DNA of 63,969 bases, counting the filler, from Planctomycetota bacterium (GTDB lineage: Bacteria > Planctomycetota > Planctomycetia > JALXBF01): NCBI GenBank assembly GCA_026991575.1. It is 3 parts of 3 records of this genome, joined end to end, with 100 filler letters (N's around TTAATTAATTAA, not from the genome) between each part and the next. Parts side by side here need not be neighbours in the genome. Positions count along the whole stretch, not along the records: positions 21,851 to 43,266 come from JALXBF010000063.1; 2 more parts are not named here. The stretch is one strand, 5' to 3'. Positions 21,851 through 43,266 of this stretch are shown here, in pieces. The notes beneath the pieces were generated by a model. The model had not been told where the DNA came from. It saw only the letters and a program-made list of their open reading frames with translations, and did not search any database. Within the stretch, counting starts at the first letter, position 1. The number at the start of each line of letters is the position of its first letter. The position numbers were made by a program, and so were the translations under genes.

Positions 21851-22769
21851 GGCGCGCTGCGAGCAGGACGGTGAGAAGTCCGAGGGCGGACAGGGCTGCC
21901 CATAGCCACAGGTGGCTTCCGCCCGACGGACGGGGTGCGGGAATGCCGAACGCCTCTGGTCGAAACAAATCCATGGGCGGCGGGGTCGGATCGAAGGAGA
22001 TTAGCCGAGCCTCAAGTCCGACGATGTCGTAGTGGGGCAGATACACCTTTGCCCATTCGACGATCGGGACTCCGTCAACCTCGCGGCCGTAGCGCAGGTC
22101 GCAGGCCCTGGCCTCCTTGCGGTACTCGCCGATCCACCAGGTCCACCCCTGAAGCGTCCAGTGACGCTCAGGATCGAACCGGAGCACCAGGTGCATCGGG
22201 TCATCCGTGCGAGGGACGGAGCGTGTGAGATGTACGAGGTATACCGAACCGCTCTCGTCCTGGCGGTGCCGCTCAGATTCCAGTTTCCACTGCTCCGAGG
22301 AAAGGATCTGCACGAGCGGCTGCCCTTGGAAGCTCAGTGCCATAAACGGAAGCAGGCCCCCGTCTTCCGCGACGAAGCCATAAGGTGAGCTGTTGTACCA
22401 GGCCCACACGTCGGACCACTCCCCTCTGCTCGACGTCCACCAACGGAGATAGTACGCCGCACCCTGCTCGACTCGCTTTATGCGGAACATGCCCGCAGGA
22501 GTGTAAATGAAGGCGCCCGTAACTCGTACCGTCGAGCTGTCTTCTTCGAGGCCATCAAGCCGAACCGCCGGCCAGCGGATGTAGAGACGCCTCCTTCCTG
22601 TTCTGCCCTCTCGGTCAGTCACGGAGTAGATCCACGTGCCACTGCCGTAGGCCTGCACGAGCCCGCGCCACGCCGAAGGGTACGTGTCCCTAATTGAGGC
22701 CATCTCGTGGATTGGGGCCTGTGCGCAGGCCGCCGTAAGAGAGGCGAGTGTCACGAGAAACGTGCCCAT
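21851..22769 (-). CDS. Family-A partner protein (signal peptide, C-terminal TM anchor), 3'-truncated by gap
   Basis: Paralog of 23238 and 24681 ORFs; G.GTW, RWPAVR.D, PPPMDLFRPEAFGIP, LWLWAALSALGLLTVLLAAR. Confidence 0.85.
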
Positions 22770-22816
22770 GGTCTTGTTACCCCCGTGCTAGCGACCGTCT
22801 AGGAGCCGAGTAGATC

Positions 22817-23101
22817 CTAAGGCATTGACATATCTATCTTGCAGACGCAGTCTGTTGTGCCGGGCGAAGAAGTGAAGTCGTGGCATCTGCATTCGGGATC
22901 GTTCCGGTCACACTGGTGTTTCCACACCCTTGGATCGCACTGGTTCGGCGAGATCGTGAAGCAGCGCAGGGCAGTAGGCCTGCACTGGTTCGGGGGCGGG
23001 GGCGACGGCTTGGCCTGAACGAGTCCTGTTACGACCGATGCAGCCAACTGCCCGACGAACAACCCCGAAGCGGCTGCGAGGACATGGCGTCTCGAGAGCA
23101 T
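22817..23101 (-). CDS. Exported 8-Cys peptide A3 with twin-arginine-like signal, 94 aa
   Basis: MLSRRHVL...VQA then KPSPPPPNQC-x6-C-x7-C-x8-C-x6-CxC-x11-CxC; GAGGAGG RBS; three paralogs. Confidence 0.85.
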   Translation of the reverse strand: MLSRRHVLAAASGLFVGQLAASVVTGLVQAKPSPPPPNQCRPTALRCFTISPNQCDPRVWKHQCDRNDPECRCHDFTSSPGTTDCVCKIDMSMP

Positions 23102-23237
23102 CGCAGCAACCTCCTCTCGCATTGCCGTCGGATAACACGTTGCCGCTAAAGGCGCGGCAAGGTCGTCACAAGGTGCTCAGCTCGATAGCCCATTGCCGTG
23201 TCCGCCGCGCCCGTAATGGCCCGCGTTGTAACTCAGC

Positions 23238-24224
23238 TCACCCTGGCGGTGAGCTCACGTCCCGTTCCGCCGCAGCGTGGCCTCTTTGCCTGCCGGCGAG
23301 CAGGCGCGCTGCGAGCAGGACGGTCAGAAGTCCGAGGGCGGACAGTGCTGCCCATAGCCACAGGTGGCTTCCGCCCGAGGGACTGGGTGTGGGAATGCCA
23401 AATGCCTCTGGTCGAAACAAATCCATGGGCGGCGGGGTCGGATCGAAGGAGATTAGCCGAGCCTCAAGTCCGACGATGTCGTAGTGGGGCAGATACACCT
23501 TTGCCCATTCGACGATCGGGACGCCGTCAACCTCGCGGCCGTAGCGCAGGTCGCAGGCTCTGGCCTCCTTGCGGTACTCACCGATCCACCAGATCCACCC
23601 CTGAAGCGTCCAGTGACGCTCGGGATCGAACCGTAACAGGAGGTGGAACGGCTCGCTAATGCCTGGCACCTGGTGCTCTAGTCGTACGGTGTATTCCGTC
23701 CTGTCGTCGTTCTGCTGGTACTTCTCCGCTCTAATGTGCCAGTCTTCCGATGAGAGGATATGAACGAGCGGTCGGCCGTCGAAACTCAGCGCCATAAAGG
23801 GGAGTGATCCGGTGTTCTCGGCGATGAAGGGACAGCGCCGAGAACTGTTGTACCGCGTCCACGGATCCGCGTTGTCCTCTTTGTCGTTCGTCCACCACGC
23901 CAGATAGTACGTGCCCGCGCGCTTGACACGTTCCAGGACGAACCTCCCGGAAGGCGTATAAATCCTCGAGCGTTCGGCAACTGCAGTACCGTCGCTGGCC
24001 GAGAGCCAGTCGATACGAACGGCCGGCCATCGTGTGTAGAGGCGCACGGCTTCCGTTCTGCCACCCCGGTGCGTGACGGAAATTACCCAGGTGCCGTGGC
24101 CGTAGACACGCATCAAGTCCTTCCATACTGTTGGGTATATATCTCTTATCGTGCCTCGATCGCCGTCTGAGTCAGGAAGGTGCGACATGAGTAGGACACA
24201 TAAGACCAAAGGACGCAATTCCAT
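23238..24224 (-). CDS. Family-A partner protein, 328 aa
   Basis: Hydrophobic N-terminus, same motifs, C-terminal TM plus basic tail. Confidence 0.88.
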   Translation of the reverse strand: MELRPLVLCVLLMSHLPDSDGDRGTIRDIYPTVWKDLMRVYGHGTWVISVTHRGGRTEAVRLYTRWPAVRIDWLSASDGTAVAERSRIYTPSGRFVLERVKRAGTYYLAWWTNDKEDNADPWTRYNSSRRCPFIAENTGSLPFMALSFDGRPLVHILSSEDWHIRAEKYQQNDDRTEYTVRLEHQVPGISEPFHLLLRFDPERHWTLQGWIWWIGEYRKEARACDLRYGREVDGVPIVEWAKVYLPHYDIVGLEARLISFDPTPPPMDLFRPEAFGIPTPSPSGGSHLWLWAALSALGLLTVLLAARLLAGRQRGHAAAERDVSSPPG

Positions 24225-24271
24225 GGTCTTTCATCCCCCGTTGGGCTCCATGCGGTGTTATTGTGACCTGA

Positions 24272-24544
24272 TTATGGGATCTCACACACGCAGCCGACAG
24301 TGCCCGGTGAGGATGTCATGTCGTGGCATCCGCATTGGGAGTTGTTCCGGTCGCACTGGTGTTTCCACACCCTTGGATCGCACTGGTTTGGTGAGATGGT
24401 GAAGCACTGGAGGGCGGTGGGCCTGCACTGGTTCGGGGGCGGGGGCGACGGCTTGGCCTGAACGAGTCCTGTTACGACCGATGCAGCCAACTGCCCGATG
24501 AAGAGCCCCGACGCTGCTGCGAGGACATGGCGTCTCGAGAGCAT
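24272..24544 (-). CDS. Exported 8-Cys peptide A2, 90 aa
   Basis: Same signal and Cys spacing; ends CGCHDMTSSPGTVGCVCEIP. Confidence 0.85.
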   Translation of the reverse strand: MLSRRHVLAAASGLFIGQLAASVVTGLVQAKPSPPPPNQCRPTALQCFTISPNQCDPRVWKHQCDRNNSQCGCHDMTSSPGTVGCVCEIP

Positions 24545-24680
24545 CGCAGCAACCTCCTCTCGCATTGCCGTCGGATAACGCGTTGCCGCTAGACATGCGG
24601 CAAGGTCTTCACGAGATTCTCAGCCCAATAGCCCGTTGCCGTGTCTGCCACGCCCGTAATGGCCCGCATTGTAACTCAGC

Positions 24681-25667
24681 TTACCCTGGTGGTGAGGCGA
24701 CGTCTCGCTTCGCCGCAGCGCGGCCTCTTTGCCTGCCGGCGAGCAGGCGCGCTGCGAGCAGGACGGTGAGAAGTCCGAGGGCGGACAGGGCTGCCCATAG
24801 CCACAGGTGGCTTCCGCCCGACGGACGGGGTGCGGGAATGCCGAACGCCTCTGGTCGAAACAAATCCATGGGTGGCGGAGTCGGGTCAAACGAGATTAGC
24901 CTGGCCTCAAGTCCGACGATGTCGTAGTGCGGCAGATACACCTTTGCCCATTCGACGATGGGGACGCCGTCAACCTCGCGGCCGTAGCGCAGGTCGCAGG
25001 CCCTGGCCTCCTTGCGGTACTCACCGATCCACCAGGTCCACCCCTGAAGCGTCCAGTGACGCTCGGGATCGAACCGGAGCACCAGGTGCATCGGGTCATC
25101 CGTGCGAGGGACGGAGCGTGTGAGATGTACGAGGTATACCGAACCGCTCTCGTCCTGGCGGGGCCGCTCAGATTCCAGTTTCCACTGCTCAGAGGAAAGG
25201 AGCTGCACGAGCGGCTGCCCCTGAAAGCTCAGTGCCATAAACGGAAGCAGGCCCCCGTCTTCCGCGACGAAGCCATAAGGTGAGCCGTTGTACCAGGCCC
25301 ACACGTCAGACCTCTCGCCTCCGCTCGACGTCCACCAGCGGAGATAGTACGTATCGCGCCTGCCGACATGCCTTACGTCGTAAATTGCCGCAGGCGTGTA
25401 GATCAATGCGCCTGACACGGTTTCGCTCGCTCCCTCGGATGTGAGTCCGTCAATTCGAACTGCCGGCCAGCGCGCATAGATCCGCGACTTGTCCGTTCTC
25501 CCCTCTCGGTCGGTCACTGAGAATACCCAGGTGCCGTTGCCGTACACGCGCAACAGATCGCCCCACACCGAGGTATAGATCCCCCTTATTGAGCTGCTCG
25601 ACTCGGCCGGGGTGGGGTCGGTGGTGAGCACTGCAGGTAAGATGCACAGAACCTCAAAGCTCGGCAT
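24681..25667 (-). CDS. Family-A partner protein, 328 aa
   Basis: Start reassigned to MPSFEVLC (ATG 25667, GAGG RBS); C-terminal ~200 aa nearly identical to the 21851-22769 copy. Confidence 0.88.
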   Translation of the reverse strand: MPSFEVLCILPAVLTTDPTPAESSSSIRGIYTSVWGDLLRVYGNGTWVFSVTDREGRTDKSRIYARWPAVRIDGLTSEGASETVSGALIYTPAAIYDVRHVGRRDTYYLRWWTSSGGERSDVWAWYNGSPYGFVAEDGGLLPFMALSFQGQPLVQLLSSEQWKLESERPRQDESGSVYLVHLTRSVPRTDDPMHLVLRFDPERHWTLQGWTWWIGEYRKEARACDLRYGREVDGVPIVEWAKVYLPHYDIVGLEARLISFDPTPPPMDLFRPEAFGIPAPRPSGGSHLWLWAALSALGLLTVLLAARLLAGRQRGRAAAKRDVASPPG

Positions 25668-25714
25668 TGTGACCTCGCCCTCCGCGATGTTCGGGGAGCG
25701 CCCGCTGCGGCCGC

Positions 25715-26002
25715 CTATGGCCGTGGCCTGGGCCCGTGTTTGCAAACACACCCTGTGGTCCCCGGTGACGACGTGAAGTCGTGGCAAGCACACTGGGGAT
25801 CGTTCCGGTCGCACTGGTGTTTCCACACCCTTGGATCGCACTGGTTTGGTGAGATGGTGAAGCACTGGAGGGCAGTGGGCCTGCATTGGTTCGGGGGCGG
25901 AGGCGACGGCTTGGCCTGGACCAGGCCATTCGTGACCGTCGCAGCCAACTGCCCGATGAAGAGCCCCGATGCTGCTGCGAGGACATGGCGTCTCTGGAGC
26001 AT
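25715..26002 (-). CDS. Exported 8-Cys peptide A1, 95 aa
   Basis: MLQRRHVL signal; same Cys spacing; ends CVCKHGPRPRP. Confidence 0.85.
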   Translation of the reverse strand: MLQRRHVLAAASGLFIGQLAATVTNGLVQAKPSPPPPNQCRPTALQCFTISPNQCDPRVWKHQCDRNDPQCACHDFTSSPGTTGCVCKHGPRPRP

Positions 26003-26424: not shown

Positions 26425-27372
26425 CTAGCTCGGGCCGTCAACGTCCGGGCCCACGCTGCCACGCAAGAGCATTCGCGCTAGCAGCAGGACGGTCAGGAGG
26501 CCCAGTGCGCACAGGACCGCCCAGAGCCACAGGCGCGTGGCCGGCGCTGACTGGCGAGGAGGAGGGATCCCGAACACCTCGGGTCGGAAAACATCTAAGG
26601 ATGGCTGACGCGCATCGTATGAGACCAATTCAGATGTCCATACGACCGAGCCGTCGCGGGCGCGCCGCCACTCGGCCCGCTCTACCAGTGGAACCCCTTT
26701 TGCAGGCGTACGGTACCAGAGTTCTATTACATCCCCCGACGAGGGGACGGAAACCAGGGAGGCGACATGCATCCGTCGCAAGACCCAGCACGGGCCCCTT
26801 TCGAACCAGAATCTGTTGCGGAGCACCCTGCTCCTACTCTTTTGCTCCTGTTCCAGGAGCAGCAATCGGCTTTCTTCCGACGAAACCCACTGCTCACGGA
26901 CGATTCGGACGTCGGAACGCTGACAGAGTTGCTCAGTCAAGGGGGTTCCGAACCAGCCGAGGGGGACGAAGGGCAGCCATCCGCGGTTGACCGCCGACAT
27001 CCAGAAGCGATCTCTATCGGGCAGTGTACCCGCGCGGTAGTACTCCAGGAGATATTGACCGGAGCCTTCGAGCCGCTTAACCCGGAAACTGGCCGTGCGC
27101 GAGAAAACGTACGCGGCCTCGACTTCGTCGTGCCGGCCAAGGAAGTCGACCCGTACGTCAGGCCAACGGGCCAGAACACGGATTCGCCTGCGTGTGGGCG
27201 TGCTTTCCGATGAGCCCTCGTGGTATGCATTGGAGAATACCCACGTGCCCTGACCGTAGACCCGGATCAGGGTACTCCACGAATACTGGTATTCGCGGCA
27301 GAAGCCGGCCTTCGGTGCTACGACCTCCTCTACCGGCGAGCACGCGATGAGCAGGAGGATGGCGATCACCAT
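26425..27372 (-). CDS. Divergent family-A partner protein, 315 aa; possible lipobox
   Basis: YGQGTWVFS, ARWPDVRVD, PSLDVFRPEVFGIP, RLWLWAVLCALGLLTVLLLAR; N-terminus MVIAILLLIAC. Confidence 0.85.
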   Translation of the reverse strand: MVIAILLLIACSPVEEVVAPKAGFCREYQYSWSTLIRVYGQGTWVFSNAYHEGSSESTPTRRRIRVLARWPDVRVDFLGRHDEVEAAYVFSRTASFRVKRLEGSGQYLLEYYRAGTLPDRDRFWMSAVNRGWLPFVPLGWFGTPLTEQLCQRSDVRIVREQWVSSEESRLLLLEQEQKSRSRVLRNRFWFERGPCWVLRRMHVASLVSVPSSGDVIELWYRTPAKGVPLVERAEWRRARDGSVVWTSELVSYDARQPSLDVFRPEVFGIPPPRQSAPATRLWLWAVLCALGLLTVLLLARMLLRGSVGPDVDGPS

Positions 27373-27431
27373 GACGGAGACTGTCCATCAGCGGCTCGGT
27401 TCATCAGCTCAGGCCCACACAGTCGGCATCA

Positions 27432-27580
27432 TCATGGGATGACGCACACGCATTCAAGGTCATGGTTACACTCGCAAACACAGCAGGGAGCTTGTCGTAC
27501 TCGCGGCCGGTTTTACAGGAGCCTTCGCTGCTGATGCACGGGTAACTCTCGACAAACACCCGACCGTAGCCTCGTCCTCG
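27432..27580 (-). pseudogene. Frameshifted remnant of a Cys-rich peptide gene (5' limit approximate)
   Basis: One frame reads YPCISSEGSCKTGREYDK, the next reads PCCVCECNHDLECVCVIP-stop, matching the CxC...CVCEIP end of peptide A2. It lies in the expected peptide slot. Confidence 0.5.
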
Positions 27581-27815: not shown

Positions 27816-28787
27816 TTAGCCACGCCCCGGGCTGCTTGCATCGTTGGCGTCTCGGGGTGTGTCAACATTCTTGCCGGGTTCGGCACCTCCGAGGAAGCGG
27901 AACAGGAGGAGGACGGTTAACAGGCCCAGCGTGCCCAGGACAGCCCACAACCAGAACCGCGTGAGGGCGACACGCGCGGGCGTTTGGATTCCGAAAGCCT
28001 CGGGCCGGAACGCTTCCTCGGGCGGCGGCCTCAGCTGCACCTCAAGCACGTGAGCTTCCCACAGGGTGGGGCCACCCGGAACTGCGAACCTGCCGCGCTC
28101 TACTAGGGGTACGCCGACCGGCCCATCACGATATTCCAGCTCGCATACGCCGATGGGCCGGTCATCCGACTCCATGTACAGTCCCCATCGACGCACGATC
28201 CATGCCTTGTCGGGTGTAAACCAGAGCCGCAGGCGTGCTTGCTCCCGCCGGTACGTCGGCACACGAAGTTCAACCACCAGTTGGCGCTCGTCTCCCGCAC
28301 GGACCCACTTCTCGCCGAGCAGCGCGATACCGCCCGGCAGTTTGATCAGATCCACAAAAGCGCCGCCAAACCAACTGAGTGTGGCAAGGGGAAGCCATCC
28401 GCGGTTGCTCGGGATATACCAGAACTCGGAGGGGACGGCGGCCTTTGGCGACCACGATGTCAGGACAAAGATTCCCAGCTCACCCACGCGCCGGACGCGG
28501 AAACGGTGGCGGGGAGACCAGACTGATGCAAAAACTGTTGTTGCGCCGTCGCCGACCTCGTCGATCCTCACCGCAGGCCAGCGGGCCAGCAGGCGTATGG
28601 TCTCCTCCTCGCCAGACCGGCGCCGCACACGAATCGTCCAGATGGCGTTTCCGTACACGTCGACCAATCGCCTCCATGCGAACGAATATTCCTTGCGCCA
28701 GAGAGACTCTTCTCCGCCCGGAGCCTGGGCCCAGCCCAGACCCAGGAGCATCGGAAGGACCGTGAGCTTAGCGGCCTGCTCCGGCAT
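27816..28787 (-). CDS. Divergent family-A partner protein, 323 aa
   Basis: YGNAIW, ARWPAVRID, NRGWLP, PPPEEAFRPEAFGI, FWLWAVLGTLGLLTVLLL. Confidence 0.85.
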   Translation of the reverse strand: MPEQAAKLTVLPMLLGLGWAQAPGGEESLWRKEYSFAWRRLVDVYGNAIWTIRVRRRSGEEETIRLLARWPAVRIDEVGDGATTVFASVWSPRHRFRVRRVGELGIFVLTSWSPKAAVPSEFWYIPSNRGWLPLATLSWFGGAFVDLIKLPGGIALLGEKWVRAGDERQLVVELRVPTYRREQARLRLWFTPDKAWIVRRWGLYMESDDRPIGVCELEYRDGPVGVPLVERGRFAVPGGPTLWEAHVLEVQLRPPPEEAFRPEAFGIQTPARVALTRFWLWAVLGTLGLLTVLLLFRFLGGAEPGKNVDTPRDANDASSPGRG

Positions 28788-28808
28788 GCGGCCAAACTCC
28801 GTGCGATG

Positions 28809-29228
28809 CTATTCGCTACGCGCAGGCCCGACCGGGGGCCTGTGACGATTAATTTTTCGGATGGATGCAGCCACAGCCGAACCCCTTTGCTGATCAAAAG
28901 ACCTGCTTAGCGCCAGAAGTGCGAGAAGTCCATACAGACACGCGAACACTCGCAGCACGCGCCGCCGCCCCGCATGGGCCAGCCAGAGACCGGCCACAAC
29001 TTCAACCACTGCGATTGACGTCGCCAGCGGTGCACTTACGATCCCCACCACCGGCAGCCTCACGAAGCCGTGCTGGCCGATTGCCAGCAGCTTCGCCACA
29101 CCGGCAAACACCAGAAGGGCTGCTCCTGCGGGCTGAGCCACGCGGGCAAGGGCAGCAAACCCAGCACGCCAAACCGCCGCTGACGTGTCCCTGAACACGT
29201 CTGCAACCGCAGACAGCAACGCTGCCAT
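28809..29228 (-). pseudogene. MauE/DoxX-like membrane protein, frameshifted before its CGC motif
   Basis: LLVFAGVAKL...VVEVVAGLWL...LYGLLALLAL in frame. FGCGCIHPKN-stop appears only in a shifted frame near 28850-28885. Confidence 0.6.
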
Positions 29229-29295
29229 TCTGTCCTCTCCGTGCTCGGAGAGCTCGTTCCCTCCACAGCCCGGGTCCGGTGTCCAGACTTGCCCC

Positions 29296-29321
29296 ATTAT
29301 CCTCCTCCTCCTCCTTGTCAA
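29296..29321 (-). promoter_or_regulatory. Microsatellite-spaced promoter TTGACA-(AGG)5-ATAAT (14-bp spacer)
   Basis: Plus strand ATTAT-(CCT)5-TGTCAA; lies upstream of the family-A gene run. Confidence 0.7.
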
Positions 29322-30129
29322 GTCCCCGGATCCAGCGGTCTAGCGGGCGAAGCAGGGGCTCGCGGGCGGTGTTTGCCATGCGGATGGGGTGGCAGATTCA
29401 TCCCTCGGGAGCGCACGGCGGTGGCATGCCGACAGACCGTCGTTGGGTCGGCGCCGTGGCCGCGTGCACTTGCCTGCGTGAGGAGTGCGAATCCACCTGC
29501 GAGATGGCGAGCGGGCCGGCTCCCAGCCGAAGCCCTGCCGATGGGAATGAGGTGGTCAACCCGCCAGCTTGCTTCGGTGAGCGGGAGGGGGCTTCATGCC
29601 CCCCTCCCGCAAGGTTGATGGATAGCGCCGGCGCATCGCCGAGAAGATTTCTTCTCTGCCGAGCCGCGGGTGGGTCGATCCCGCCCGCGGCTCGGGCGGT
29701 GGGGTTTCCCTGGGCCGTCGGCGTGGGCGAGCAGATTTCGTTGTGCTTCGGGCGGGAGCGCGACCCCGCCGCGCCGACGCCGCGGGCGCCGGCCGCGGCG
29801 GCGGGGGGTTTTCCAATCGGCCGAAGAAAACACAACACGGGGCACCTCGGCGGCAGCCAACCGACCAGTCGGGACGGGACAGAAAGCCCCCGACATGACT
29901 ATCCGAGCAGGCGGACCGGTCTGTTAGCTTTCGAGTTCGCAAGACACCCCGCGGACAGGGCGAGCATCTCCATCATCGTCTGAGCGGCACAGACAGCGGG
30001 CCACTTGCCGGCAGCGCGATCGTGCAGCCGAAACCCACCCGTTGCGTGGTCCATCCGATCGTCCCTATCGGCTTCCATGGCATTGTCGGTTGAGTGCTCT
30101 ATGTCTTGCGAAGGCCGAACCAGGTTCCC

Positions 30130-35040: not shown

Positions 35041-35603
35041 TAGCTTCCCCCCTTTTCACGTTCGCCCGGGTCCGCGCGGCTGCTCGTTGCGCTTGCAGAA
35101 TGACCGGCGGAGCTAGCGACGGCGTGGGTCGGCAGCCTGACCGGTATGGTACCCACGTCGGGTCCTACGTAGAGCACAACCCACTCGTCGTTGGAAGCCT
35201 CACCGGTCGAGGGCCTGGCGTCCGGATCCGTGCGTACGCGAAAGACCAGGGTGATCGTCTGCCCGGGGGGGATGGACCGCGGCAGTTGGTCCGTGAGCAC
35301 GCAGTTGCAACTCGCCTGAGCGCCGTAGATAGTCAACGTGCGGCTGGTGAGGTTCTTGAGTCCCACGGGAACGCGGATCACTCCGTTGGACGTTGTCGTT
35401 GGCGCAAGGACGCTCACGGCGAGCTTTTCACCGCCCAGCCACGCGAGGAAATCGTGGAGCGATCCCTTCCAGAGCACACCTGCGCCGATCACGCCGAGGG
35501 CCAACAGCAGTCCCAGCGTGCTGCCCATGATCAAGGATCTAAACTGTGGCCGATCAAACGCCGCTCTAACCATGCCTGAGCGCGCTTCAGTCACCGCGTG
35601 CAT
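35040..35603 (-). CDS. DUF1573-like Ig-fold membrane-anchored protein (start uncertain)
   Basis: TM helix, then LKNLTSRTLTIYGAQASCNC...IPPGQ. Stop overlaps next start (TAATG). Confidence 0.72.
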   Translation of the reverse strand: MHAVTEARSGMVRAAFDRPQFRSLIMGSTLGLLLALGVIGAGVLWKGSLHDFLAWLGGEKLAVSVLAPTTTSNGVIRVPVGLKNLTSRTLTIYGAQASCNCVLTDQLPRSIPPGQTITLVFRVRTDPDARPSTGEASNDEWVVLYVGPDVGTIPVRLPTHAVASSAGHSASATSSRADPGEREKGGS

Positions 35604-36816
35604 CCCCTACGTCGAATTGACGCGATCGGCCCCAACTCCCCGCGGTGGGCTGTCGGGAGCCGACAGCCAGACCGGTCACAGAGGCCCGATCGACGACCGA
35701 CGGGGCCACTACTAGTGCCCGGGGCCGCCTGCCTTGCGCGGTGCGACCTGCACTGGACGTAGTCTTTTGTTTCGCTGCGGTGCGGTGCTGTGGGAGGGTG
35801 CCGTTCCGCACACCGGCACCATAGCCGCGCTTGCCGACGGCTGTGCTGTCTGGACGGGGAGAAAGGTGTCGCACTTCGACAACGATATCCTTGTGTACGC
35901 GGATGAGTAGAGGGGTCTGCCGGACCGATTTCGCCGGGGTCGGTAGCGCGACCACTTGCCAGCCGCTGGCCTGCAGCAAGGACTGCAAATCCTGGTCGGC
36001 GGACAGTAGGACGACCGTTGGCGGATTATCTTCGCCTGGCGGTGCGAAGAGCAGCGGACGCAGATGCTTCACTGAGCGTCGGCACTCAGAGCAAGTGGGA
36101 TCCAGTAGTAGCATGGAGTTCTTGCGGTGCTGGTTTTCCGTAACAGCGTGCAGCATACGAGGCACTGGTTGCCCAAGCCATTGATAGGGATCTACGAGGA
36201 CGCTGCCGCTTCTTGTGACAAGTACTCCCGAGTAGACCTCATGCACTGACCGAGCTGCGAGGGCGACAGAGACGGCGCTGACCGTTGCCAAGCAGGTAGC
36301 GATTCCGGTGCCCAGGGTGACGGACGTGGTGGTGGTGGCGTCAGACCCCGATCTGGTGGCTCGAACGAAGAGTAGTGTTCCAACAGTGAAGTCGAACATG
36401 CTGACCAGTAGGGGATGGATCTGGACGAACGGACCAAAGCAACCGCACGTATCGCGGCCGAGTCCCGCCATCGTTAGAGCGGCGGCTCCCAGAAGCCACC
36501 ACCACAGGGCTGCGAGTCGCTGCAGGGTTCGCCACTGAGGGGTGATGATCAGGACGGTGCCGAGCCAGAGCTCAACGGGAACGGCAGCGTAGCTGACGGT
36601 GGCGAGCCAGCCATCTGCGGCTACGACCCAGCCGAATCGCCACAGTGCTGCCAGCTTGAAGACACTCGCCGCGACAAGAGTGAGTCCAAGTACGACAGGC
36701 AGAGCAGCGCCGGACAAGCTAGCGACCAGAAGGTTCTTGACCGGGCTTTGGCCGCCTTTCGGAGCGCGTGCCGCGGTGTGTTCGGCTACGTTCGTCGTCT
36801 GGCGACTCGTTCTCAT
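35587..36816 (-). CDS. MauE/DoxX-family membrane protein with C-terminal thioredoxin-like CxxC domain
   Basis: LVAASVFKL, VELWLG, TCGCFG, then DPYQWLGQ...LLDPTCSECRR. Confidence 0.8.
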   Translation of the reverse strand: MRTSRQTTNVAEHTAARAPKGGQSPVKNLLVASLSGAALPVVLGLTLVAASVFKLAALWRFGWVVAADGWLATVSYAAVPVELWLGTVLIITPQWRTLQRLAALWWWLLGAAALTMAGLGRDTCGCFGPFVQIHPLLVSMFDFTVGTLLFVRATRSGSDATTTTSVTLGTGIATCLATVSAVSVALAARSVHEVYSGVLVTRSGSVLVDPYQWLGQPVPRMLHAVTENQHRKNSMLLLDPTCSECRRSVKHLRPLLFAPPGEDNPPTVVLLSADQDLQSLLQASGWQVVALPTPAKSVRQTPLLIRVHKDIVVEVRHLSPRPDSTAVGKRGYGAGVRNGTLPQHRTAAKQKTTSSAGRTAQGRRPRALVVAPSVVDRASVTGLAVGSRQPTAGSWGRSRQFDVGDARGD

Positions 36817-37213: not shown

Positions 37214-38290
37214 CTAACCGCCGCTAGCCCTTTCCGTGGCACGTGCCCGGCGCAGTGCGAGCAGCGCAAGCAGCGCCAGGACGAGTGCGGTGACGGATCC
37301 TGCCGCCAGGACGAGCGCCCGACTACTGGAAGTCTGCTCAATCGCCGACTCGTCGATCCCGTAGTACGGCAAGTAAAACGCCTCAGCGGGATGGCGGCAT
37401 GCAGTACTGCCAAGGATGGTGTATTCCAACAAGTCGCGTTGGAGGATGGCAGGAGTTCCGTTCATGGTTTCTGCGAGGACCTGTTCAACGACGTACCTGC
37501 TGGGCTCAAGGGATGAACCGTCGGCGTAGAAGACTCTTGTCGTGGTCACGCACTGAACGGTGGGATGAGTAGAAACGACCCTAGCCGAGACGCATGCATA
37601 CTGCCTGGCTGGATCGAAAGAGATGTGCCACTGTCGGTTCGGTCGCGCGAACCAGCAGCGATGCGCGACCGTGGTGGAGACGACGGCCTTCACGCTACCG
37701 CCGGGCGTCCGGACACAGCGGGACGAGAAGCCTCGGGTGCCGGCAAGGGCCACCGTGGCTGGCAGCCCGCAGGCGACTATCGGTGACAATACGGCCATGA
37801 CGGCATCTGACAGCCGGGAACCGTGCTTCCCAACCGCATGGAAGTCCGGATATCGAGCGTACCAGCGGGGGTTTGCCAGGCCACGCCGCAGCGTGTAGTA
37901 GCCTTCTCCTATGCGTAGTACGCTAGCGGAGTACCGTTCGTTGAGCAGAACGACGTGTTCGTTGCCGTTAGAGAGTCGCCTGCGAATACGCAACCTTCGG
38001 TCGCGCAGTCGGAAGCACACCCAAAATTCGTTCGATATGCTGCCAGGAGGTTCTTCGGATGCGGATGCCTGAGGTACCTTCCACACGCGGCTCAAATGGA
38101 ACTCTCGGCCGTCGACGGCGTTCAAGTATTTCGCTTCCAAGGCCCGTACATGTGGCAACAACTGGCCGCACGAGCCGGCATTGTCTTTCTGGCTAGCCTG
38201 CTCGCGCGCATCCACAGCGCTGATCGCGCCCAAGGCCAGGGAGCACAAAGCCCCTATTGTGAGGTGGCTTAGTTGTCTATGCACTAACAT
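37214..38290 (-). CDS. Family-B partner protein B4
   Basis: Signal peptide; LEAKYL..DGREF, FWVCFR, WY..YPDF, CRHPAEAFYLPYYGIDES, TM plus RR. Confidence 0.85.
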   Translation of the reverse strand: MLVHRQLSHLTIGALCSLALGAISAVDAREQASQKDNAGSCGQLLPHVRALEAKYLNAVDGREFHLSRVWKVPQASASEEPPGSISNEFWVCFRLRDRRLRIRRRLSNGNEHVVLLNERYSASVLRIGEGYYTLRRGLANPRWYARYPDFHAVGKHGSRLSDAVMAVLSPIVACGLPATVALAGTRGFSSRCVRTPGGSVKAVVSTTVAHRCWFARPNRQWHISFDPARQYACVSARVVSTHPTVQCVTTTRVFYADGSSLEPSRYVVEQVLAETMNGTPAILQRDLLEYTILGSTACRHPAEAFYLPYYGIDESAIEQTSSSRALVLAAGSVTALVLALLALLALRRARATERASGG

Positions 38291-38511
38291 TCCTCTTCCT
38301 GGTCGTTCCACCTGCACTGCAGCGCGCCCTGTCGTTGGCAGTCGTTATTGCGGTAGGCGCACCTGGTCTTCTTGCTAGGAGTCCATCCGTCGCAGTGGAC
38401 GTCTAGGCTAGCCAGTGCAGGGCGTTCCACGGACCGAGCGGTTGCGAAAGCTAAGAGGAGGGACAGCATGCCGAGCGAGGAGGCAACGGCGACGAGCAGG
38501 GTCTGCTTCAT
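38284..38511 (-). CDS. Exported Cys-rich peptide B4, ending at an amber codon inside the terminal CxC
   Basis: MKQTLL signal; CDGWTPSKKTRCAYRNNDCQRQGALQCRWNDQEEEC-TAG-CIDN-TAA. Confidence 0.8.
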   Translation of the reverse strand: MKQTLLVAVASSLGMLSLLLAFATARSVERPALASLDVHCDGWTPSKKTRCAYRNNDCQRQGALQCRWNDQEEEC

Positions 38512-38686
38512 GGCCTGGCTCCGTCGTGATTGACCCGTCGCAGTTAGGGCTATCGGCACCGACTCTCCTTCTCCGCCGCCCCGTCGAGAGGCTGAGGCGT
38601 CAAAACTAATGTTTCCGGGCCGCGGCCCTGGCCGGGCCGCGCCATTTGGCCTTGGCCGTTGTCTTCGCACGGGCACCAAGTCCGGA

Positions 38687-39739
38687 TCAAGTGGCGGAGT
38701 TCGGACGGTTCCATGCTCGCCGCAATGCCAACAGGGCGAGCAAGGCCAGAAGCGCGGCAGCGGCCGATGCTGCCGCCAGCACGGCCACGCGCAGCGTTCC
38801 CAATGGCCTGATCACCGACTCGTCAATGCCGTAGTACGGCAGGTAGAAGGCTTCCGGGGGATGTCGACATAGCGTACTGCTAGCGATCGTGGATTCTGTT
38901 ACCAATTGTTGCACAACGTGGGTAGAGCTCTCGGACGATTCCCTAAGGACTTGTTCAACTACATAGCGACTCGGCTGGACCGGCGTGTGCCCAGAATAGG
39001 TGACAGTGGCGGTCACCTCGCTCGTGAACGAGTCGTGCGTGGACGTTACTCTAGACGCGATACACGCGAACCGCTGGCTGGGGTCGAGTGTCACCTCCCA
39101 TTGCTGACCTGTGCGCACCAACCACGATTGATGTTCGTGGATCGGGGTGGAGCGGATGCGCAGCAAACCCTCCTGGGTATACGCGCATCGGGAAGAGAAT
39201 ACCCTGTCATGACCGGCCAGCAGGGCAGTGACCGGTGGACCGCCGGCAACCACAGGAGCCAGGATGGCCAACGTAGCCTCCGCTGCCTGTGACCCGTGCG
39301 CCCCGATGGAGTAGAGATCGGGGTACCAGCCCTGCCATTGCGAGACGGCGGTATGCCGCTCGAGAAAGTATCCTCCAGCGGCGAGCCGCACGACGCGCGC
39401 GGAGTAGTACTCGTTCACGAGAATAATGCGTTCCTTGGCGTCCGGACGGCGCGGCCGCCAACGAACGAGTAGCTTCCTTTCCCGCGGCCGGAAGCAGATC
39501 CAGAAGTCATTCGGCGGTGACTGGACCGAGTCCTGACCGTCTTGGTTATCAACCGGTGCGACCAGCTTCCAACGCTGCACGACGTGGAATTCTCGGCCAT
39601 CAAGTTCGTCCAAGTAGCGGGCCTCAAGCTCCCGCACCTGCGGTAGCACCTCGGAGCACGCGGTACCGTCGGGATGTTGCTGAACCGGTGCTGGAGCCGT
39701 CGCCGCTGGTACCATGGCCAACAGCACTACCACCCACAT
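38687..39739 (-). CDS. Family-B partner protein B3, 350 aa
   Basis: MWVVVLLAMVPAATA signal; paralog motifs; C-terminal TM plus RRAWNRP. Confidence 0.88.
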   Translation of the reverse strand: MWVVVLLAMVPAATAPAPVQQHPDGTACSEVLPQVRELEARYLDELDGREFHVVQRWKLVAPVDNQDGQDSVQSPPNDFWICFRPRERKLLVRWRPRRPDAKERIILVNEYYSARVVRLAAGGYFLERHTAVSQWQGWYPDLYSIGAHGSQAAEATLAILAPVVAGGPPVTALLAGHDRVFSSRCAYTQEGLLRIRSTPIHEHQSWLVRTGQQWEVTLDPSQRFACIASRVTSTHDSFTSEVTATVTYSGHTPVQPSRYVVEQVLRESSESSTHVVQQLVTESTIASSTLCRHPPEAFYLPYYGIDESVIRPLGTLRVAVLAAASAAAALLALLALLALRRAWNRPNSAT

Positions 39740-39759
39740 GCGAACGTCTCCGCTGCGCG

Positions 39760-40011
39760 CTAGCCCCTGCACTCGCACTGGTTCATCTGATTAATCCACA
39801 TGCAGCGAAGTAGCCCCTGTTCCTGGCAACGATTGTTCCGAAGTGCACACCAGTTCGGATTGCTGGGCTGCCAGCCGTCGCACTGAGGGGGAGGGCCACC
39901 TTCTGCCCCCGGAACCGGTCGGTGCGCCGCTGCCAGCAAGGCCGCAACTGCCAACAGCACCGCTAGCACACTGGACGACGAGAACAGCGCCGCCAGGAGC
40001 GTTCGTTTCAT
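39760..40011 (-). CDS. Exported 6-Cys peptide B3, 83 aa
   Basis: MKRTLL plus hydrophobic signal; C-x10-C-x6-C-x7-C-x8-CxC; GGAGG RBS. Confidence 0.87.
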   Translation of the reverse strand: MKRTLLAALFSSSSVLAVLLAVAALLAAAHRPVPGAEGGPPPQCDGWQPSNPNWCALRNNRCQEQGLLRCMWINQMNQCECRG

Positions 40012-40072
40012 GGTCACGCCTCCGCTGAACGCTCGAACGGTGGCGTTGGTCATACAGCCCGATACCACCCCA

Positions 40073-40095
40073 ATTATCCTCCTCCTCCTTGTCAA
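40073..40095 (-). promoter_or_regulatory. Microsatellite-spaced promoter TTGACA-(AGG)4-ATAAT (11-bp spacer)
   Basis: Plus strand ATTAT-(CCT)4-TGTCAA, ~60 nt upstream of peptide B3. Confidence 0.7.
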
Positions 40096-40191
40096 GACCT
40101 CAGGCACGAAGGTCTCGGCCTCCTGGCCGCGGCCCTGGCCAGGCAGGGGCGGTGAGCCGGCTGACGTGTTGCCGCCAGCACAAGTGGTGGC

Positions 40192-41241: not shown

Positions 41242-41262
41242 GTGGTCCTCCTCCGGAACACG

Positions 41263-41514
41263 CTATCGGTGGCATTCGCAGTGGCCCATGTCCATATTCC
41301 ACTTGCACTGCAGTTGTCCCTGCCGCTGACAGCTGTTGTTGCGGAACGCACAGCGCTTCGGATCGCTGGGCTGCCATCCGTCGCACTGAGGGAGACCGCC
41401 ACCTTTGGCTCCCAGAACCGGTCGGTGCACCGCTGCCAGCAAGGCCGCAACTGCCAACAGCACAGCGAGCAGACCGGATGATGAGAACAGCGCTGCCAGG
41501 AGCGTCCGTTTCAT
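41263..41514 (-). CDS. Exported 6-Cys peptide B2, 83 aa
   Basis: Same signal and Cys spacing; ends CKWNMDMGHCECHR. Confidence 0.87.
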   Translation of the reverse strand: MKRTLLAALFSSSGLLAVLLAVAALLAAVHRPVLGAKGGGLPQCDGWQPSDPKRCAFRNNSCQRQGQLQCKWNMDMGHCECHR

Positions 41515-41575
41515 GGTCACGCCTCCGCTGAACGCTCGAACGGTGGCGTTGGCCATACAGCCCGATACCACCCCA

Positions 41576-41598
41576 ATTATCCTCCTCCTCCTTGTCAA
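41576..41598 (-). promoter_or_regulatory. Microsatellite-spaced promoter TTGACA-(AGG)4-ATAAT (11-bp spacer)
   Basis: Plus strand ATTAT-(CCT)4-TGTCAA upstream of peptide B2. Confidence 0.7.
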
Positions 41599-41694
41599 GG
41601 CCTCAGGCACGAAGGCCTTGGCCTCCTGGCCACGGCCCTGGCCAGGCAGCGGCGGTGAGCCGGCTGACGCGTTTCCGCCGGCACAAGTGGTGGC

Positions 41695-42744
41695 TCACAC
41701 GCTGGAATTCGGACGGTTCCATGCTCGCCGCAATGCCAACAGGGCGAGCAAGGCCAGAAGCGCGGCAGCGGCCGATGCTGCCGCCAGAACGGCCACGCGC
41801 AGCGTTCCCGATGGCGTGATCACCGACTCGTCAATGCCATAGTACGGCAGGTAGAACGCCTCGGGAGGATGCTGGCACGGTGTGGGAGGCCCAATGGTGT
41901 ACTCGATCAGTAGGTGATGCACCACGCTTGGTGATTTGCCAGCCACAGACCTGGCTAGCTCCTCCACGACGTATTGACTCGGCAGTAGAGAGGGGGTGTT
42001 AGTGTAGGTGGTTTGGGCCGTTACTTCTCCTGCGAAGGAATCCCAGCGTGAGGTCACCCTTGACTTGGTGCAAGCAAACTGCTGGTTGGGATCCAAGGTA
42101 ACTTCCCATTGCCGGTCCGTGCGCACGAGCCATGGCTGGTACTGGGTGGTGGAAGAGGCACGGAGCCGGAGCAATCCTTTGGAAGTGAGGCCGCAGCGAG
42201 AAGTGAACCCATGCTCGCCCGCAAGCAAGGCAGCAATCGGCGGACCAAGGGCCACTACGGGCGACAACAGCGCTAACACCGGGTCGGCTGCCCGCAACCC
42301 ATGGATCCCTATCGAGTGGAAATCAGGGCACCACCTTTCCCAGGAGGGTGGGCCTGCGTGGCGCTCCAGGTAATAGCCACCCCCGGCCAGTCTCAGGACG
42401 CGGGCTGAGTAGGATTCGTTGACCAGGATGATTCGTTCTTGACCGTCTGGGCGCCCCGAATGCCAACGGATCAGCAGCCGCTTCTGACGCAGCCGAAGGC
42501 AAATCTGGAAATCGTTCGTTGGCGGTTGTGCCGACGCCACTTCATCACGGTTGTCCGTCGGCGACGCCAGCTTCCAGATCTGCCTAACCCGGAACTCCTG
42601 CTCGTCGATTGTGTTCAGGTACCGTGCCTCGAGCGTTCGAATGTGCGGCAACACCTGCGAGCATCCAGCACTGTTCGCCTGTTGGTGGGCAAGGTGGAAG
42701 TTGGCCAGAGCAGAGAGTGTGGCGAGGACCACCACCAGGCACAT
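41695..42744 (-). CDS. Family-B partner protein B1, 349 aa
   Basis: AGGAGG RBS, MCLVVVLATLSALA signal; paralog motifs; C-terminal TM. Confidence 0.88.
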   Translation of the reverse strand: MCLVVVLATLSALANFHLAHQQANSAGCSQVLPHIRTLEARYLNTIDEQEFRVRQIWKLASPTDNRDEVASAQPPTNDFQICLRLRQKRLLIRWHSGRPDGQERIILVNESYSARVLRLAGGGYYLERHAGPPSWERWCPDFHSIGIHGLRAADPVLALLSPVVALGPPIAALLAGEHGFTSRCGLTSKGLLRLRASSTTQYQPWLVRTDRQWEVTLDPNQQFACTKSRVTSRWDSFAGEVTAQTTYTNTPSLLPSQYVVEELARSVAGKSPSVVHHLLIEYTIGPPTPCQHPPEAFYLPYYGIDESVITPSGTLRVAVLAAASAAAALLALLALLALRRAWNRPNSSV

Positions 42745-42764
42745 GAACGCCCTCCTGCTGCATG

Positions 42765-43016
42765 CTAGGGAGTGCACTCGCAATGGTTCATCATCATATT
42801 CCACTTGCACTGCAGTTGTCCCTGGCGCTGACAGCTGTTGTTGCGGAACGCACAGCGCTTCGGATCGCTGGGCTGCCATCCGTCGCACTGAGGGAGACCG
42901 CCACCTTTGGCTCCCAGAACCGGTCGGTGCGCCGCTGCCAGCAAGGCCGCAACTGCCAACAGCACAGCGAGCAGACTGGATGATGAGAACAGCGCCGCCA
43001 GGAGCGTCCGTTTCAT
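42765..43016 (-). CDS. Exported 6-Cys peptide B1, 83 aa
   Basis: Same signal and Cys spacing; ends CKWNMMMNHCECTP. Confidence 0.87.
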   Translation of the reverse strand: MKRTLLAALFSSSSLLAVLLAVAALLAAAHRPVLGAKGGGLPQCDGWQPSDPKRCAFRNNSCQRQGQLQCKWNMMMNHCECTP

Positions 43017-43077
43017 GGTCACGCCTCCGCTGGACGCCCGAACGGTGGCGTTGGTCATACAGCCCGATACCACCCCA

Positions 43078-43124
43078 ATTATCCTCCTCCTCCTCCTCCT
43101 CCTCCTCCTCCTCCTCCTTGTCAA
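43078..43124 (-). promoter_or_regulatory. Microsatellite-spaced promoter TTGACA-(AGG)12-ATAAT (35-bp spacer)
   Basis: Plus strand ATTAT-(CCT)12-TGTCAA; flanks nearly identical to the n=4 copies. Confidence 0.7.
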
Positions 43125-43220
43125 GGCCTCAGGCACGAAGGCCTTGGCCTCCTGGCCACGGCCTTGGCCAGGCAGCGGCGGTGAGCCGGCTGACGCGTTT
43201 CCGCCGGCACAAGTGGTGGC

Positions 43221-43257
43221 TCAGACGCTAGAGTTCGGACGGTTCCATGCTCGCCGC
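43221..43257 (-). CDS. 3' end of a further family-B partner gene, cut by gap
   Basis: Encodes ...RRAWNRPNSSV-stop, identical to the B1/B2 ends. Confidence 0.7.
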
Positions 43258-43266
43258 AGATACAAC

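Follow-up and report, generated by a model that had tools for sequence, protein, structure and literature searches.

Cys-rich mini-protein genes paired with genes for predicted LolA-fold membrane anchors around a candidate tailoring operon in a planctomycete

We analyzed a 63,969-nt stretch of DNA (the window) from a Planctomycetota bacterium (assembly GCA_026991575.1), in which, at positions 21851–43266, genes for small exported Cys-rich proteins (mini-proteins or peptides) are each followed by the gene for a larger membrane-anchored partner, and in which five tailoring genes stand between two arrays of such cassettes. This gene pair is common in its class and vertically widespread, lies usually beside DUF1573 and/or MauE genes and repeatedly beside genes for a GT2 and a PMT-like GT-C glycosyltransferase, and it appears to be undescribed so far: A literature search outside subscription journals found no description of the module. 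The window joins the contigs C60, C63 and C70 artificially via linkers (TTAATTAATTAA) flanked by N runs at 21751–21794, 21807–21850, 43267–43310 and 43323–43366, and the locus is exactly contig C63 (21,416 b). Coordinates are positions of the whole joined window; G000 denotes the genome under study (4.96 Mb, 191 contigs, 97.8% complete), C-numbers denote contigs, and the remaining G-numbers denote other genomes. All real genes of C63 are on the minus strand, which carries seven intact peptide open reading frames (ORFs), one peptide remnant, nine partners, one partner fragment, five tailoring genes and a MauE-like remnant (Table 1); our recount of peptides, partners and coupled genes on this one strand is identical to the inventory of the initial annotation. 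On this strand, starting at 43266, the order is the final 14 codons of a B partner, four B cassettes, the five overlapping tailoring genes ending with GT-C, 0.8 kb of non-coding DNA, the MauE-like remnant, partner A5, a peptide remnant with A4, and three A cassettes. The A peptides measure 90–95 amino acids (aa) and the A partners 328 aa, the B peptides 75–83 aa and the B partners 349–358 aa, and the units recur with a period of 1443–1503 nt.

Table 1. Features of the locus, in window coordinates (TM, transmembrane; SAM, S-adenosylmethionine).
Feature	Coordinates	Strand	Remark
Partner A1, predicted LolA fold, C-terminus cut at contig end	21852..22769	-	likely continues on C129 (112-nt overlap, 100%)
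Peptide A1, S-R-R signal peptide, mature part ~64 aa, 8 Cys, CxC end	22820..23101	-	
Partner A2, 328 aa: signal peptide, predicted LolA/LolB-type half-barrel, C-terminal TM helix, basic tail	23238..24224	-	
Peptide A2	24275..24544	-	
Partner A3	24684..25667	-	
Peptide A3, intact	25718..26002	-	
Partner A4, divergent subfamily, 31% identity to A2	26425..27372	-	
A-type peptide remnant: Cys-rich tail alone, frame broken upstream	27435..27491	-	
Partner A5, no peptide gene ahead	27816..28787	-	
MauE-like remnant, without the CxC and the C-terminal CxxC domain of the C129 and G001 counterparts	28809..29231	-	PF07291 16.2 bits, E 0.014
Promoter-like element TTGACA-(AGG)n-GATAAT, spacer 14 nt	29296..29321	-	
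Non-coding stretch with dispersed genomic repeat	29322..30129	none	
GT-C glycosyltransferase, PMT-like, 549 aa	30130..31779	-	
GT2 (polyprenol-phosphate sugar synthase type)–SAM methyltransferase fusion, 544 aa	31776..33410	-	
Lnt-like acyltransferase, 553 aa, putative dedicated paralog	33379..35040	-	
DUF1573-type Ig-like protein, 187 aa, N-terminal TM helix, CxC (Cys form)	35040..35603	-	
MauE-type membrane protein, 409 aa, CGCFG and C-terminal CxxC domain	35587..36816	-	
Partner B1	37217..38290	-	
Peptide B1, 5 Cys	38287..38511	-	
Partner B2	38690..39739	-	
Peptide B2, 6 Cys, CxC end	39763..40011	-	
Promoter-like element, spacer 11 nt	40073..40095	-	
Partner B3, 349 aa	40192..41241	-	
Peptide B3	41266..41514	-	
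Promoter-like element, spacer 11 nt	41576..41598	-	
Partner B4	41698..42744	-	
Peptide B4	42768..43016	-	
Promoter-like element, 36-nt perfect (TCC/GGA) tract, spacer 35 nt	43078..43124	-	
3' end of a further B partner (C-terminal fragment), cut at contig end	43224..43265	-	

The peptide ORFs are real coding genes. In each of the encoded peptides, an Ala-x-Ala-type site comes after a hydrophobic signal segment, and a lipobox is missing throughout; GGAGG stands 7–9 nt ahead of 10 of the 11 peptide start codons (ATG) in the window, on C129 and in the sister-genus genome G001, the eleventh having GGAG. Seven Cys columns show no variation when seven A-type peptides of two genera are aligned, and a CxC motif lies a few residues from the C-terminus both in the A and B peptides of the window and in nearly all of the very diverse peptides of relatives, while an S/T-R-R signal motif occurs in peptide families A and C and is absent from the G001 peptides. 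The peptides A1–A3 are ~90% identical and under purifying selection: Their mature parts differ at a proportion of 0.07–0.10 of non-synonymous sites (pN) vs 0.47–0.58 of synonymous sites (pS), corresponding to a ratio of the substitution rates (dN/dS) of 0.10–0.15, and the ratio for B2–B4 is 0.31–0.38. A lack of conservation, which had been named beforehand as grounds for giving up the proposal, is thus countered by purifying selection, by the Shine–Dalgarno sites and by the invariant Cys residues.

The partners fall outside the sequence families that we searched: Eight partners of the window match no Pfam family (E up to 0.01), three of them together with three relatives match no NCBIfam family and no CTERM-domain model of the PEP-CTERM type (E up to 0.1), and a sequence search of the PDB returned nothing meaningful for the partners. 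The AlphaFold2 model of partner A2, computed from an alignment of seven paralogs of the same genome (predicted local distance difference test score, pLDDT, 79.9; predicted template modeling score, pTM, 0.72), has an N-terminal helix, then 12 strands that short helices interrupt, and finally a C-terminal helix of considerable length. Foldseek retrieved LolA3 of P. gingivalis as the best match (9tp6, E 3e-7), along with 3bk5, DUF1329, LprG, NE2245, LolB and LolA, and LppX is, like LprG, among the structural matches of the partners in the Foldseek lists. In a Foldseek-independent search (VIA), LolA3 aligned to the A2 model with a Z-score of 13.7 and a root-mean-square deviation of 3.9 over 207 residues; the five matches LolA3, LolB, 3bk5, DUF1329 and NE2245 span Z-scores of 12.4–13.7 (13.7, 13.6, 13.4, 13.4, 12.4) over 203–210 residues, and unrelated barrels remain below 8. 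The model of partner B3 is weak (pLDDT 56.3), shows the same order of elements and again has LolA proteins at the top of the Foldseek list (E 1.4e-5). At the sequence level, the five B partners score 15.7–33.9 bits with a broad A-type profile, and a profile–profile comparison of A and B partners aligned the 56 C-terminal columns alone, with a probability of 8%; in the ESM Atlas, the partner lies among unnamed Planctomycetota clusters, the nearest named one being LolA-like (0.81). The models, of which that for B is of low confidence, thus predict for both partner families a LolA/LolB-type half-barrel with a C-terminal membrane helix.

All partners have the same kind of C-terminal region: A conserved aromatic-Gly-Ile/Leu motif is succeeded by a short linker rich in Pro, Ser and Thr, then by a hydrophobic helix and a tail of basic residues. 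This arrangement is that of a type-I membrane protein whose barrel lies outside. It resembles the layout of sorting signals (motif, helix, basic tail), but the motif precedes the helix by ~10 residues. The partners do not fit a soluble LolA-type carrier or a LolB-type lipoprotein receptor, since the alignments show a C-terminal hydrophobic helix with basic residues after it and no lipobox. A word-based protein search with B3 recovered the own-genome copies and one fragment only, and the B-partner profile found no match among 5,051 ORFs of other genomes.

Within G000, a six-frame scan (11,062 ORFs, E up to 1e-3) yielded 18 partner-family ORFs; once B3, B4 and two candidates on C74, recognized by architecture only, are added, the genome holds 22 partner-type genes, 16 of which have an upstream signal-bearing ORF with at least 5 Cys, that of A5 being doubtful. 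Contig C129 carries a paralogous set (~50% protein identity) of DUF1573, Lnt-like, GT2–methyltransferase and GT-C genes with a B peptide and partner, and in addition a MauE-like gene with CxxC, one A cassette of peptide plus partner, and another DUF1573 gene. On C28, a compact row at 1024–5386, which may be a minimal form of the system, contains a MauE-like gene (24.8 bits), a small Cys-rich ORF, a partner and a PMT_2-type GT-C gene whose product passes the cut-off of that family (31.8 vs 26.1 bits). The metagenome-assembled genome (MAG) G001 (JALSID010000343.1) has the order MauE-CxxC, three A-type cassettes, DUF1573 with an internal TGA codon, Lnt-like, GT2–methyltransferase and GT-C. Both C129 and G001 keep the gene order of C63.

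We then asked how far the pair extends. A profile of 42 partner sequences, for which only five candidates were scored per genome, matched 136 of 400 other genomes of the class (E up to 1e-4), or, G000 included, 137 of 401 genomes and 83 of 202 genera; among 400 genomes drawn evenly from the whole phylum it matched only 2. An exhaustive HMMER search gave 228 partner representatives at E up to 1e-3, and all 30 partner relatives tested against Pfam were without a family. For the pairing, we took the 28 best-scoring loci of other genomes, with 30 partner ORFs in 105.8 kb, and counted with an admittedly crude detector same-strand ORFs of at most 260 codons that end 700–1700 nt before the partner end, contain a hydrophobic stretch and have at least 6 Cys in their last 80 residues. 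Such an ORF lies upstream of 18 of the 30 partners, on the opposite strand of none and downstream of two, and only 20 ORFs of this kind exist in all 105.8 kb. The pairing, whose absence from other genomes would have spoken against the initial annotation, is consequently found elsewhere, and in G001 in the same order. The co-occurrence with redox, glycosyltransferase and Lnt-like genes that the same annotation had proposed to look for is borne out in part: DUF1573-like ORFs adjoin in 13 of the 28 loci, MauE-like ORFs in 4, and GT-C or GT2 genes appear repeatedly, whereas Lnt-like genes do not accompany the pair in general.

Twelve further loci were picked by hand for tandem partners or for nearby GT-C or Lnt matches and are not a sample; in six of them, Pfam was run on 39 of the 59 ORFs, namely those that remain when partners, peptides and overlapped ORFs are set aside. 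DUF1573-peptide-partner units are repeated up to four times in G670. GT2 and GT-C genes follow the unit in G573, G684, G525 and G771; GT-C and/or GT2 genes are located within ~6 kb of partners in these four genomes, in G001 and in G000 (C63, C129, C28), and in G684 Pfam identified a GT2, a separate methyltransferase and a GT87. A lnt paralog in G014 (LNT_N and CN_hydrolase), 1.2 kb from a partner, scores above the Lnt-like type of G000 and G001. Two kinds of fusion connect the parts of the module, a MauE+DUF1573 protein (G771 C4, 12431–13369) and tandem partner+DUF1573 proteins (G389 C1, 10566–11852 and 11982–13274; 38.2 and 35.7 bits) that are without the C-terminal membrane helix. As a separate observation, a DUF1559 pilin-like gene comes after a partner in five loci of other genomes (L090 13121–14290, L091 9861–10940, L093 10087–11307, L094 12085–13242 and, recognized by eye, L058 8855–10069), immediately so in the four that were scanned with Pfam, three of which have an N-terminal methylation motif; DUF1559 is very abundant in the phylum and its position may be due to chance.

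The five tailoring genes lie between the A and B arrays with overlapping starts and stops. In the MauE-type protein, the characteristic motif is CGCFG: BLASTP aligns the protein to its G001 ortholog only around this motif (E 3e-5), and PF07291 gives the window protein no match at E up to 5 and the G001 ortholog 36.7 bits (cut-off 27). According to a 2026 preprint, MauE replaces DsbB in E. coli, has an active site of CxC followed by F-G, and is fused to thioredoxin-type domains in 8.2% of its entries (10.64898/2026.03.05.709764). We infer that the CxxC tail of the MauE-type protein is thioredoxin-like. The DUF1573 protein of the window contains the CxC and scores 21.6 bits with PF07610, under the cut-off of 26.1, which copies of the module elsewhere exceed (30.9, 35.7 and 38.2 bits). 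Two DUF1573 genes on C129 (670–672 and 10778–10780) and the one of G001 (near 5846) have an in-frame TGA at the position of the first Cys, and ~16 nt 3' of it a short conserved hairpin whose stem is present in two of the three minimum-energy folds, with z-scores of −0.18 to −1.15 that are not distinctive; G000 encodes tRNA-Sec and SelB. DUF1573 selenoproteins with a UGC motif are already catalogued in two reviews; in the TGA-bearing proteins seen here, the second Cys is replaced.

The Lnt-like protein matches TIGR00546 over its full length (positions 2–395 of 395) with 82.9 bits (82.9–96.2 among the copies) vs a cut-off of 132.9, and its Glu-Lys-Cys triad is intact in the alignment to P. aeruginosa Lnt (5n6m). 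The canonical lnt of G000 is located on C50 (256 bits); all 21 genomes searched carry a canonical lnt, and the low-scoring full-length paralog occurs only in G000 (two copies) and G001 (one). Judged by these scores, the Lnt-like gene is a dedicated paralog distinct from the housekeeping lnt. The GT2–methyltransferase is recognized by PF00535 (93.5 bits) and PF08241 (62.9 bits), and it has NCBIfam matches of the ArnC, AglJ and dolichyl-phosphate hexose transferase types, all below the cut-offs. For the GT-C of the window, Pfam gave no match and a sequence search of the PDB nothing meaningful; its C129 paralog and G001 ortholog match PMT_2/PMT with 20.3–21.6 bits (E 3–5e-4), below the cut-offs. 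GT-C orthologs, scoring 978–1053 bits, are confined to G000 and G001 among the 401 genomes, where the next best score is 145 bits, and when 185,579 species genomes were scanned by pattern, the G001 contig was the only match. The gene content, with a CGCFG-containing MauE, a DUF1573 with CxC, a triad-bearing Lnt-like protein, a GT2–methyltransferase and a PMT-like GT-C, fits the maturation outside the cytoplasm that the initial annotation had suggested. Its statement that enzymes for ribosomally synthesized and post-translationally modified peptides (RiPPs) and peptidase-transporters are missing holds for the 18 contig proteins scanned with Pfam; a class II bacteriocin or RiPP locus was rejected as a candidate, no leader peptidase, ATP-binding cassette exporter or RiPP tailoring enzyme being among these proteins.

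The cassettes are mosaics. The 5' leader, the signal peptide and, in B2–B4, most of the peptide are 83–100% identical between units, and the last 120–400 nt of the partner genes are 92–100% identical, while the partner cores have an identity of 22–78% per 60-nt window. The dN/dS of the partners is 0.2–0.58 and indicates purifying or relaxed selection; positive selection is not seen at this resolution. A peptides that stay near-constant while their partners diverge argue against strict co-diversification.

A promoter-like element composed of TTGACA, an AGG run and GATAAT is present in four copies on C63, heading the peptide genes B2, B3 and B4 as well as the MauE remnant at a distance of 60–105 nt from the starts. 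The assignment of microsatellite promoters to the cassettes, made from the sequence beforehand, therefore applies to B2, B3, B4 and the unit of the MauE remnant and A5, but not to A1–A3 and B1; the A1–A3 cassettes may be read through from upstream. G000 has seven copies in total, all of which head modules, with spacers of 11, 11, 14, 14, 19, 29 and 35 nt. Two of them belong to third-family cassettes on C74 (9838–14041; spacers 29 and 14), with peptides of 6 Cys and an S-R-R signal and partners of ~430–480 aa that the A-type profile does not recognize, and one to a DUF1573-peptide-partner unit on C39 (15463–18407), where the tract is interrupted and the spacer is 19 nt. The 4.96 Mb of the genome contain only two perfect trinucleotide tracts of at least 30 nt, both inside the element; a GATAAT end with AGG units precedes the MauE gene of G001 at the contig end, and the tract of C129 is degenerate. 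Slippage in steps of 3 nt (11, 14, 17...) might switch the cassettes, a reasonable idea that is drawn only from the differences in repeat number between paralogous copies.

How the contig relates to the rest of the genome follows mainly from its ends. The first 112 nt of C63 and C129 are reverse complements with 100% identity, and in the protein database all five B partners sit on one 35,776-b contig; C63 and C129 are hence very probably a single duplicated locus of ~36 kb with two tailoring sets, but the overlap lies in a repeat and the join therefore falls short of proof. C63 is best explained as the larger half of this duplicated locus and as the genome's biggest cluster of the envelope module. 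The initial annotation had overlooked the predicted LolA fold of the partners, the likely continuation of the locus on a second contig and the wide occurrence of the core module in the class. For population data, we compared contigs assembled from three DNA runs. In X1, which may be the source sample, Logan contigs contain every unique C63 segment with 0 differences at ~43x; because they break at repeats, the order of the cassettes and the length of the 36-nt tract are known from the assembly alone. In run X2 of that study, a relative differs by scattered substitutions, and one X2 contig joins 37344 to 40320, places that fall within the conserved 3' portions of the B1 and B3 partner genes, and so would have two B cassettes fewer; this single contig, with a 58-nt side, hints that the copy number of cassettes may differ between strains. 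Three minor points concern the contig as a whole. Spurious ORFs are abundant because the G+C content of the window is 59–68%, and ORFs that seem to enter the linkers (21795–22769 and 43311–43592) are artefacts of the join. The repeat at 29322–30129 spans ~300–400 nt, gives 61 blastn rows including the self match (70–92% identity, on many contigs), has a 3–4x summed depth in X1, and may be a miniature mobile element. An Rfam scan of C63 found no family.

From domain identity, gene order and fusions, we derive a working model, to which we assign somewhat less than an even chance: The module would be a dedicated line for the oxidative folding, glycosylation and acylation of mini-proteins held by LolA-fold anchors, and possibly phase-variable. 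The core module consists of an exported Cys-rich mini-protein that carries a signal peptide, 5–13 Cys and, close to the C-terminus, a CxC; of a type-I membrane protein, encoded directly downstream, whose periplasmic part has the predicted LolA/LolB half-barrel; and of a redox helper, namely a DUF1573 protein with CxC or selenocysteine and/or MauE. Following export, the mini-protein would be cleaved by signal peptidase I. MauE, acting like DsbB with its CxC active site, would generate disulfides, which may reach the mini-protein via the fused CxxC domain and/or the membrane-anchored DUF1573. Once folded, the mini-protein would remain on the outside of the cytoplasmic membrane together with the LolA-fold partner that its own cassette encodes. 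The GT2–methyltransferase would produce a polyprenol-phosphate (methyl)sugar, which the PMT-like GT-C would move to a Pro/Ser/Thr-rich stretch, either the N-terminus of the mini-protein or the juxtamembrane linker of the partner, and the Lnt-like paralog would attach an acyl chain that the half-barrel could hold. Slippage in the (AGG)n spacer could turn single cassettes on or off and thereby lead to cell-to-cell variation of the envelope repertoire. The fullest version of this model, a phase-variable combinatorial envelope system in which disulfide-knotted, glycosylated and, in this genome, acylated mini-proteins each have their own LolA-fold receptor under an (AGG)n slippage switch, we regard as rather doubtful.

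Several points weigh against the model or limit it. For the binding to a cognate receptor that the initial annotation had suggested, a complex prediction of the mature A2 peptide with the ectodomain of partner A2 gave no verdict, at a score of 0.01 vs a mark of 0.32. Four of the hand-picked loci (G525, G513, G593 and G528) have 2–5 tandem partners and no detected peptide. Lnt-like genes are missing from most loci of the class, which places acylation outside the core module, and the mini-proteins are without a lipobox and so offer no lipobox acceptor to the Lnt-like enzyme. The assignments of the DUF1573, MauE and GT-C proteins of the window lean on orthologs and motifs, and the C-terminal CxxC domain of the MauE-type proteins has no match in Pfam or the PDB. 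As to the switch, none of the seven copies of the element has a spacer of 16–18 nt, and a consensus promoter scan finds no promoter there.

A different function in the cell envelope would be the handling of lipids or lipoproteins. In this case the LolA-fold proteins would carry either lipoproteins or a lipid or glycolipid that the Lnt-like, GT2 and GT-C enzymes produce; the mini-proteins would serve as small accessory or regulatory subunits and not as cargo, and the arrays would reflect paralog expansion and not switching. The best structural matches of the partners are indeed carriers of lipoproteins or lipids (LolA, LolB, LprG with phosphatidylinositol mannoside or triacylglyceride, LppX), the genome has ~18–22 partner-type genes, arrays of partners only exist, and a paper on Corynebacterium describes lnt and ppm1 in one operon acting on the lipoprotein LppX (PMC3460810). 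The partners here are held by a C-terminal TM helix, however, and hence would not shuttle; the tight order of peptide and partner, together with the redox helpers and the fusions that involve them, speaks for a protein as the client, and in the loci scanned the core module contained no genes for lipid synthesis. We consider this explanation rather unlikely. Less likely still is the polymorphic toxin–immunity or bacteriocin system named first among the initial suggestions, with secreted antimicrobial mini-proteins and partners that protect the producer from its own peptide. Small exported disulfide-rich peptides each followed by a membrane protein, arrays with conserved flanks and divergent cores, and an X2 strain that appears to be without two B cassettes (one contig, 58-nt side) would agree with it. 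The 18 contig proteins, however, include no exporter, leader peptidase or toxin domain; the peptides A1–A3 are nearly the same under purifying selection and their partner cores strongly different, so that A peptides and partners do not co-diversify; the dN/dS values of the partners give no sign of diversifying selection; and the partner-only arrays, the ~20 partner paralogs and the vertical spread of the module within one class, together with redox helpers of a housekeeping type, disfavor toxin–immunity. Kin recognition, suggested alongside it, likewise finds no support in peptides and partners that do not co-diversify, in the partner-only arrays and in the ~20 paralogs.

The presence of MauE and of twin-arginine-like signal motifs in families A and C could also mean that the mini-proteins are small redox subunits like MauA, with a cofactor or a role in electron transfer, and the partner their large subunit or docking protein, and for the peptide a Me-amine-dh_L cluster appears in the ESM Atlas at rank 20 with a score of 0.86, which we treat as no more than a lead. 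Against this stand the six peptide ORFs of the window searched with Pfam, none of which matches PF02975 (MauA) at E up to 0.01, the Pfam-scanned loci with no MauG-, MauB- or MauD-type gene, the G001 peptides without the RR motif, and the LolA fold, which is no dehydrogenase fold; we hold this reading to be very improbable. Finally, both ends of C63 fall in repeats, the arrays are unspanned and the long microsatellite is not crossed by X1 contigs, which might suggest an assembly artefact or non-coding repeats. The unique parts, however, are reproduced in X1 with 0 differences and even depth, synonymous changes far exceed non-synonymous ones, and a second MAG as well as complete genomes from the class show the same architecture. 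That the repeats are artefacts, a risk pointed out at the outset, is thus scarcely credible and already contradicted by the data.

The folding and tailoring line with LolA-fold anchors that we prefer would have consequences beyond this locus. Neither Pfam nor NCBIfam has a family for the mini-protein or for the anchored LolA-fold partner, yet the partner profile matches one in three of the genomes sampled from the class and ~20 genes here, and a large unstudied part of the planctomycete cell envelope thereby becomes visible. The MauE+DUF1573 and partner+DUF1573 fusions provide DUF1573 with a testable role as a periplasmic carrier of disulfides, which would fit its selenocysteine forms. The repeated link with PMT-like GT-C, GT2 and a Lnt paralog points to pathways of protein glycosylation and acylation, which to our knowledge have so far been known mainly from Actinobacteria. 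If the model is true, the LolA fold would be newly used as a dedicated holder of a protein client, and the system would be the first with phase variation reported in the phylum, for which the microsatellite element is a direct and cheap test case: A literature search combining phase variation and Planctomycetota found nothing, and we know of no phase-variable repeat promoter in Planctomycetota.

Repeat tracts between the −35 and −10 hexamers control phase-variable promoters of Neisseria porA and opc, Haemophilus hif and Bordetella fim. The element described here has in common with them a perfect tract between consensus-like hexamers and a copy number that differs among paralogous copies; it differs by its trinucleotide unit and by the absence of a permissive spacer, and it is known from sequence alone. 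With LolA, LolB and the larger LolA-like proteins (P. gingivalis LolA3 and LolB, V. parahaemolyticus 3bk5, DUF1329, NE2245) the partners share the half-barrel, an unclosed antiparallel beta-barrel with a helical plug, at the Z-scores given above; unlike these, they are outside the LolA sequence families, are anchored by a C-terminal helix, are encoded behind a gene for a Cys-rich mini-protein, and number ~20 paralogs per genome.

The redox genes are closest to the mau cluster, in which the DsbB-like MauE and the thioredoxin-like MauD mature MauA, methylamine dehydrogenase's small subunit with six disulfides. In both systems, a MauE-type protein of the CxC-FG kind is accompanied by a CxxC domain and by an exported, small and Cys-rich protein; a twin-arginine-like signal is present in some of the small proteins, and a dedicated oxidative-folding set serves one small client. 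The peptides here are, however, not MauA; MauB, MauG and amine-oxidation genes are absent from the loci scanned, DUF1573 often replaces the helper, and the LolA-fold anchor, the cassette arrays and the genes for glycosylation and acylation are found only here. For the latter genes, the nearest counterpart is the actinobacterial ppm operon, in which Lnt/Ppm2 and the polyprenol-phosphate-mannose synthase Ppm1 together with Pmt couple the N-acylation of lipoproteins such as LppX to their O-glycosylation (mannosylation) (PMC3460810). In both cases a Lnt-type gene overlaps a GT2 gene and is followed by a PMT-like GT-C, LolA-fold proteins are found alongside, and acylation and glycosylation are coupled outside the cytoplasm, as the genes suggest for our locus. 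What sets the planctomycete version apart is its Lnt-type gene, an extra divergent paralog, the methyltransferase domain of its GT2, and LolA-fold proteins that do without a lipobox and are anchored by a C-terminal helix, all in a Planctomycetota lineage.

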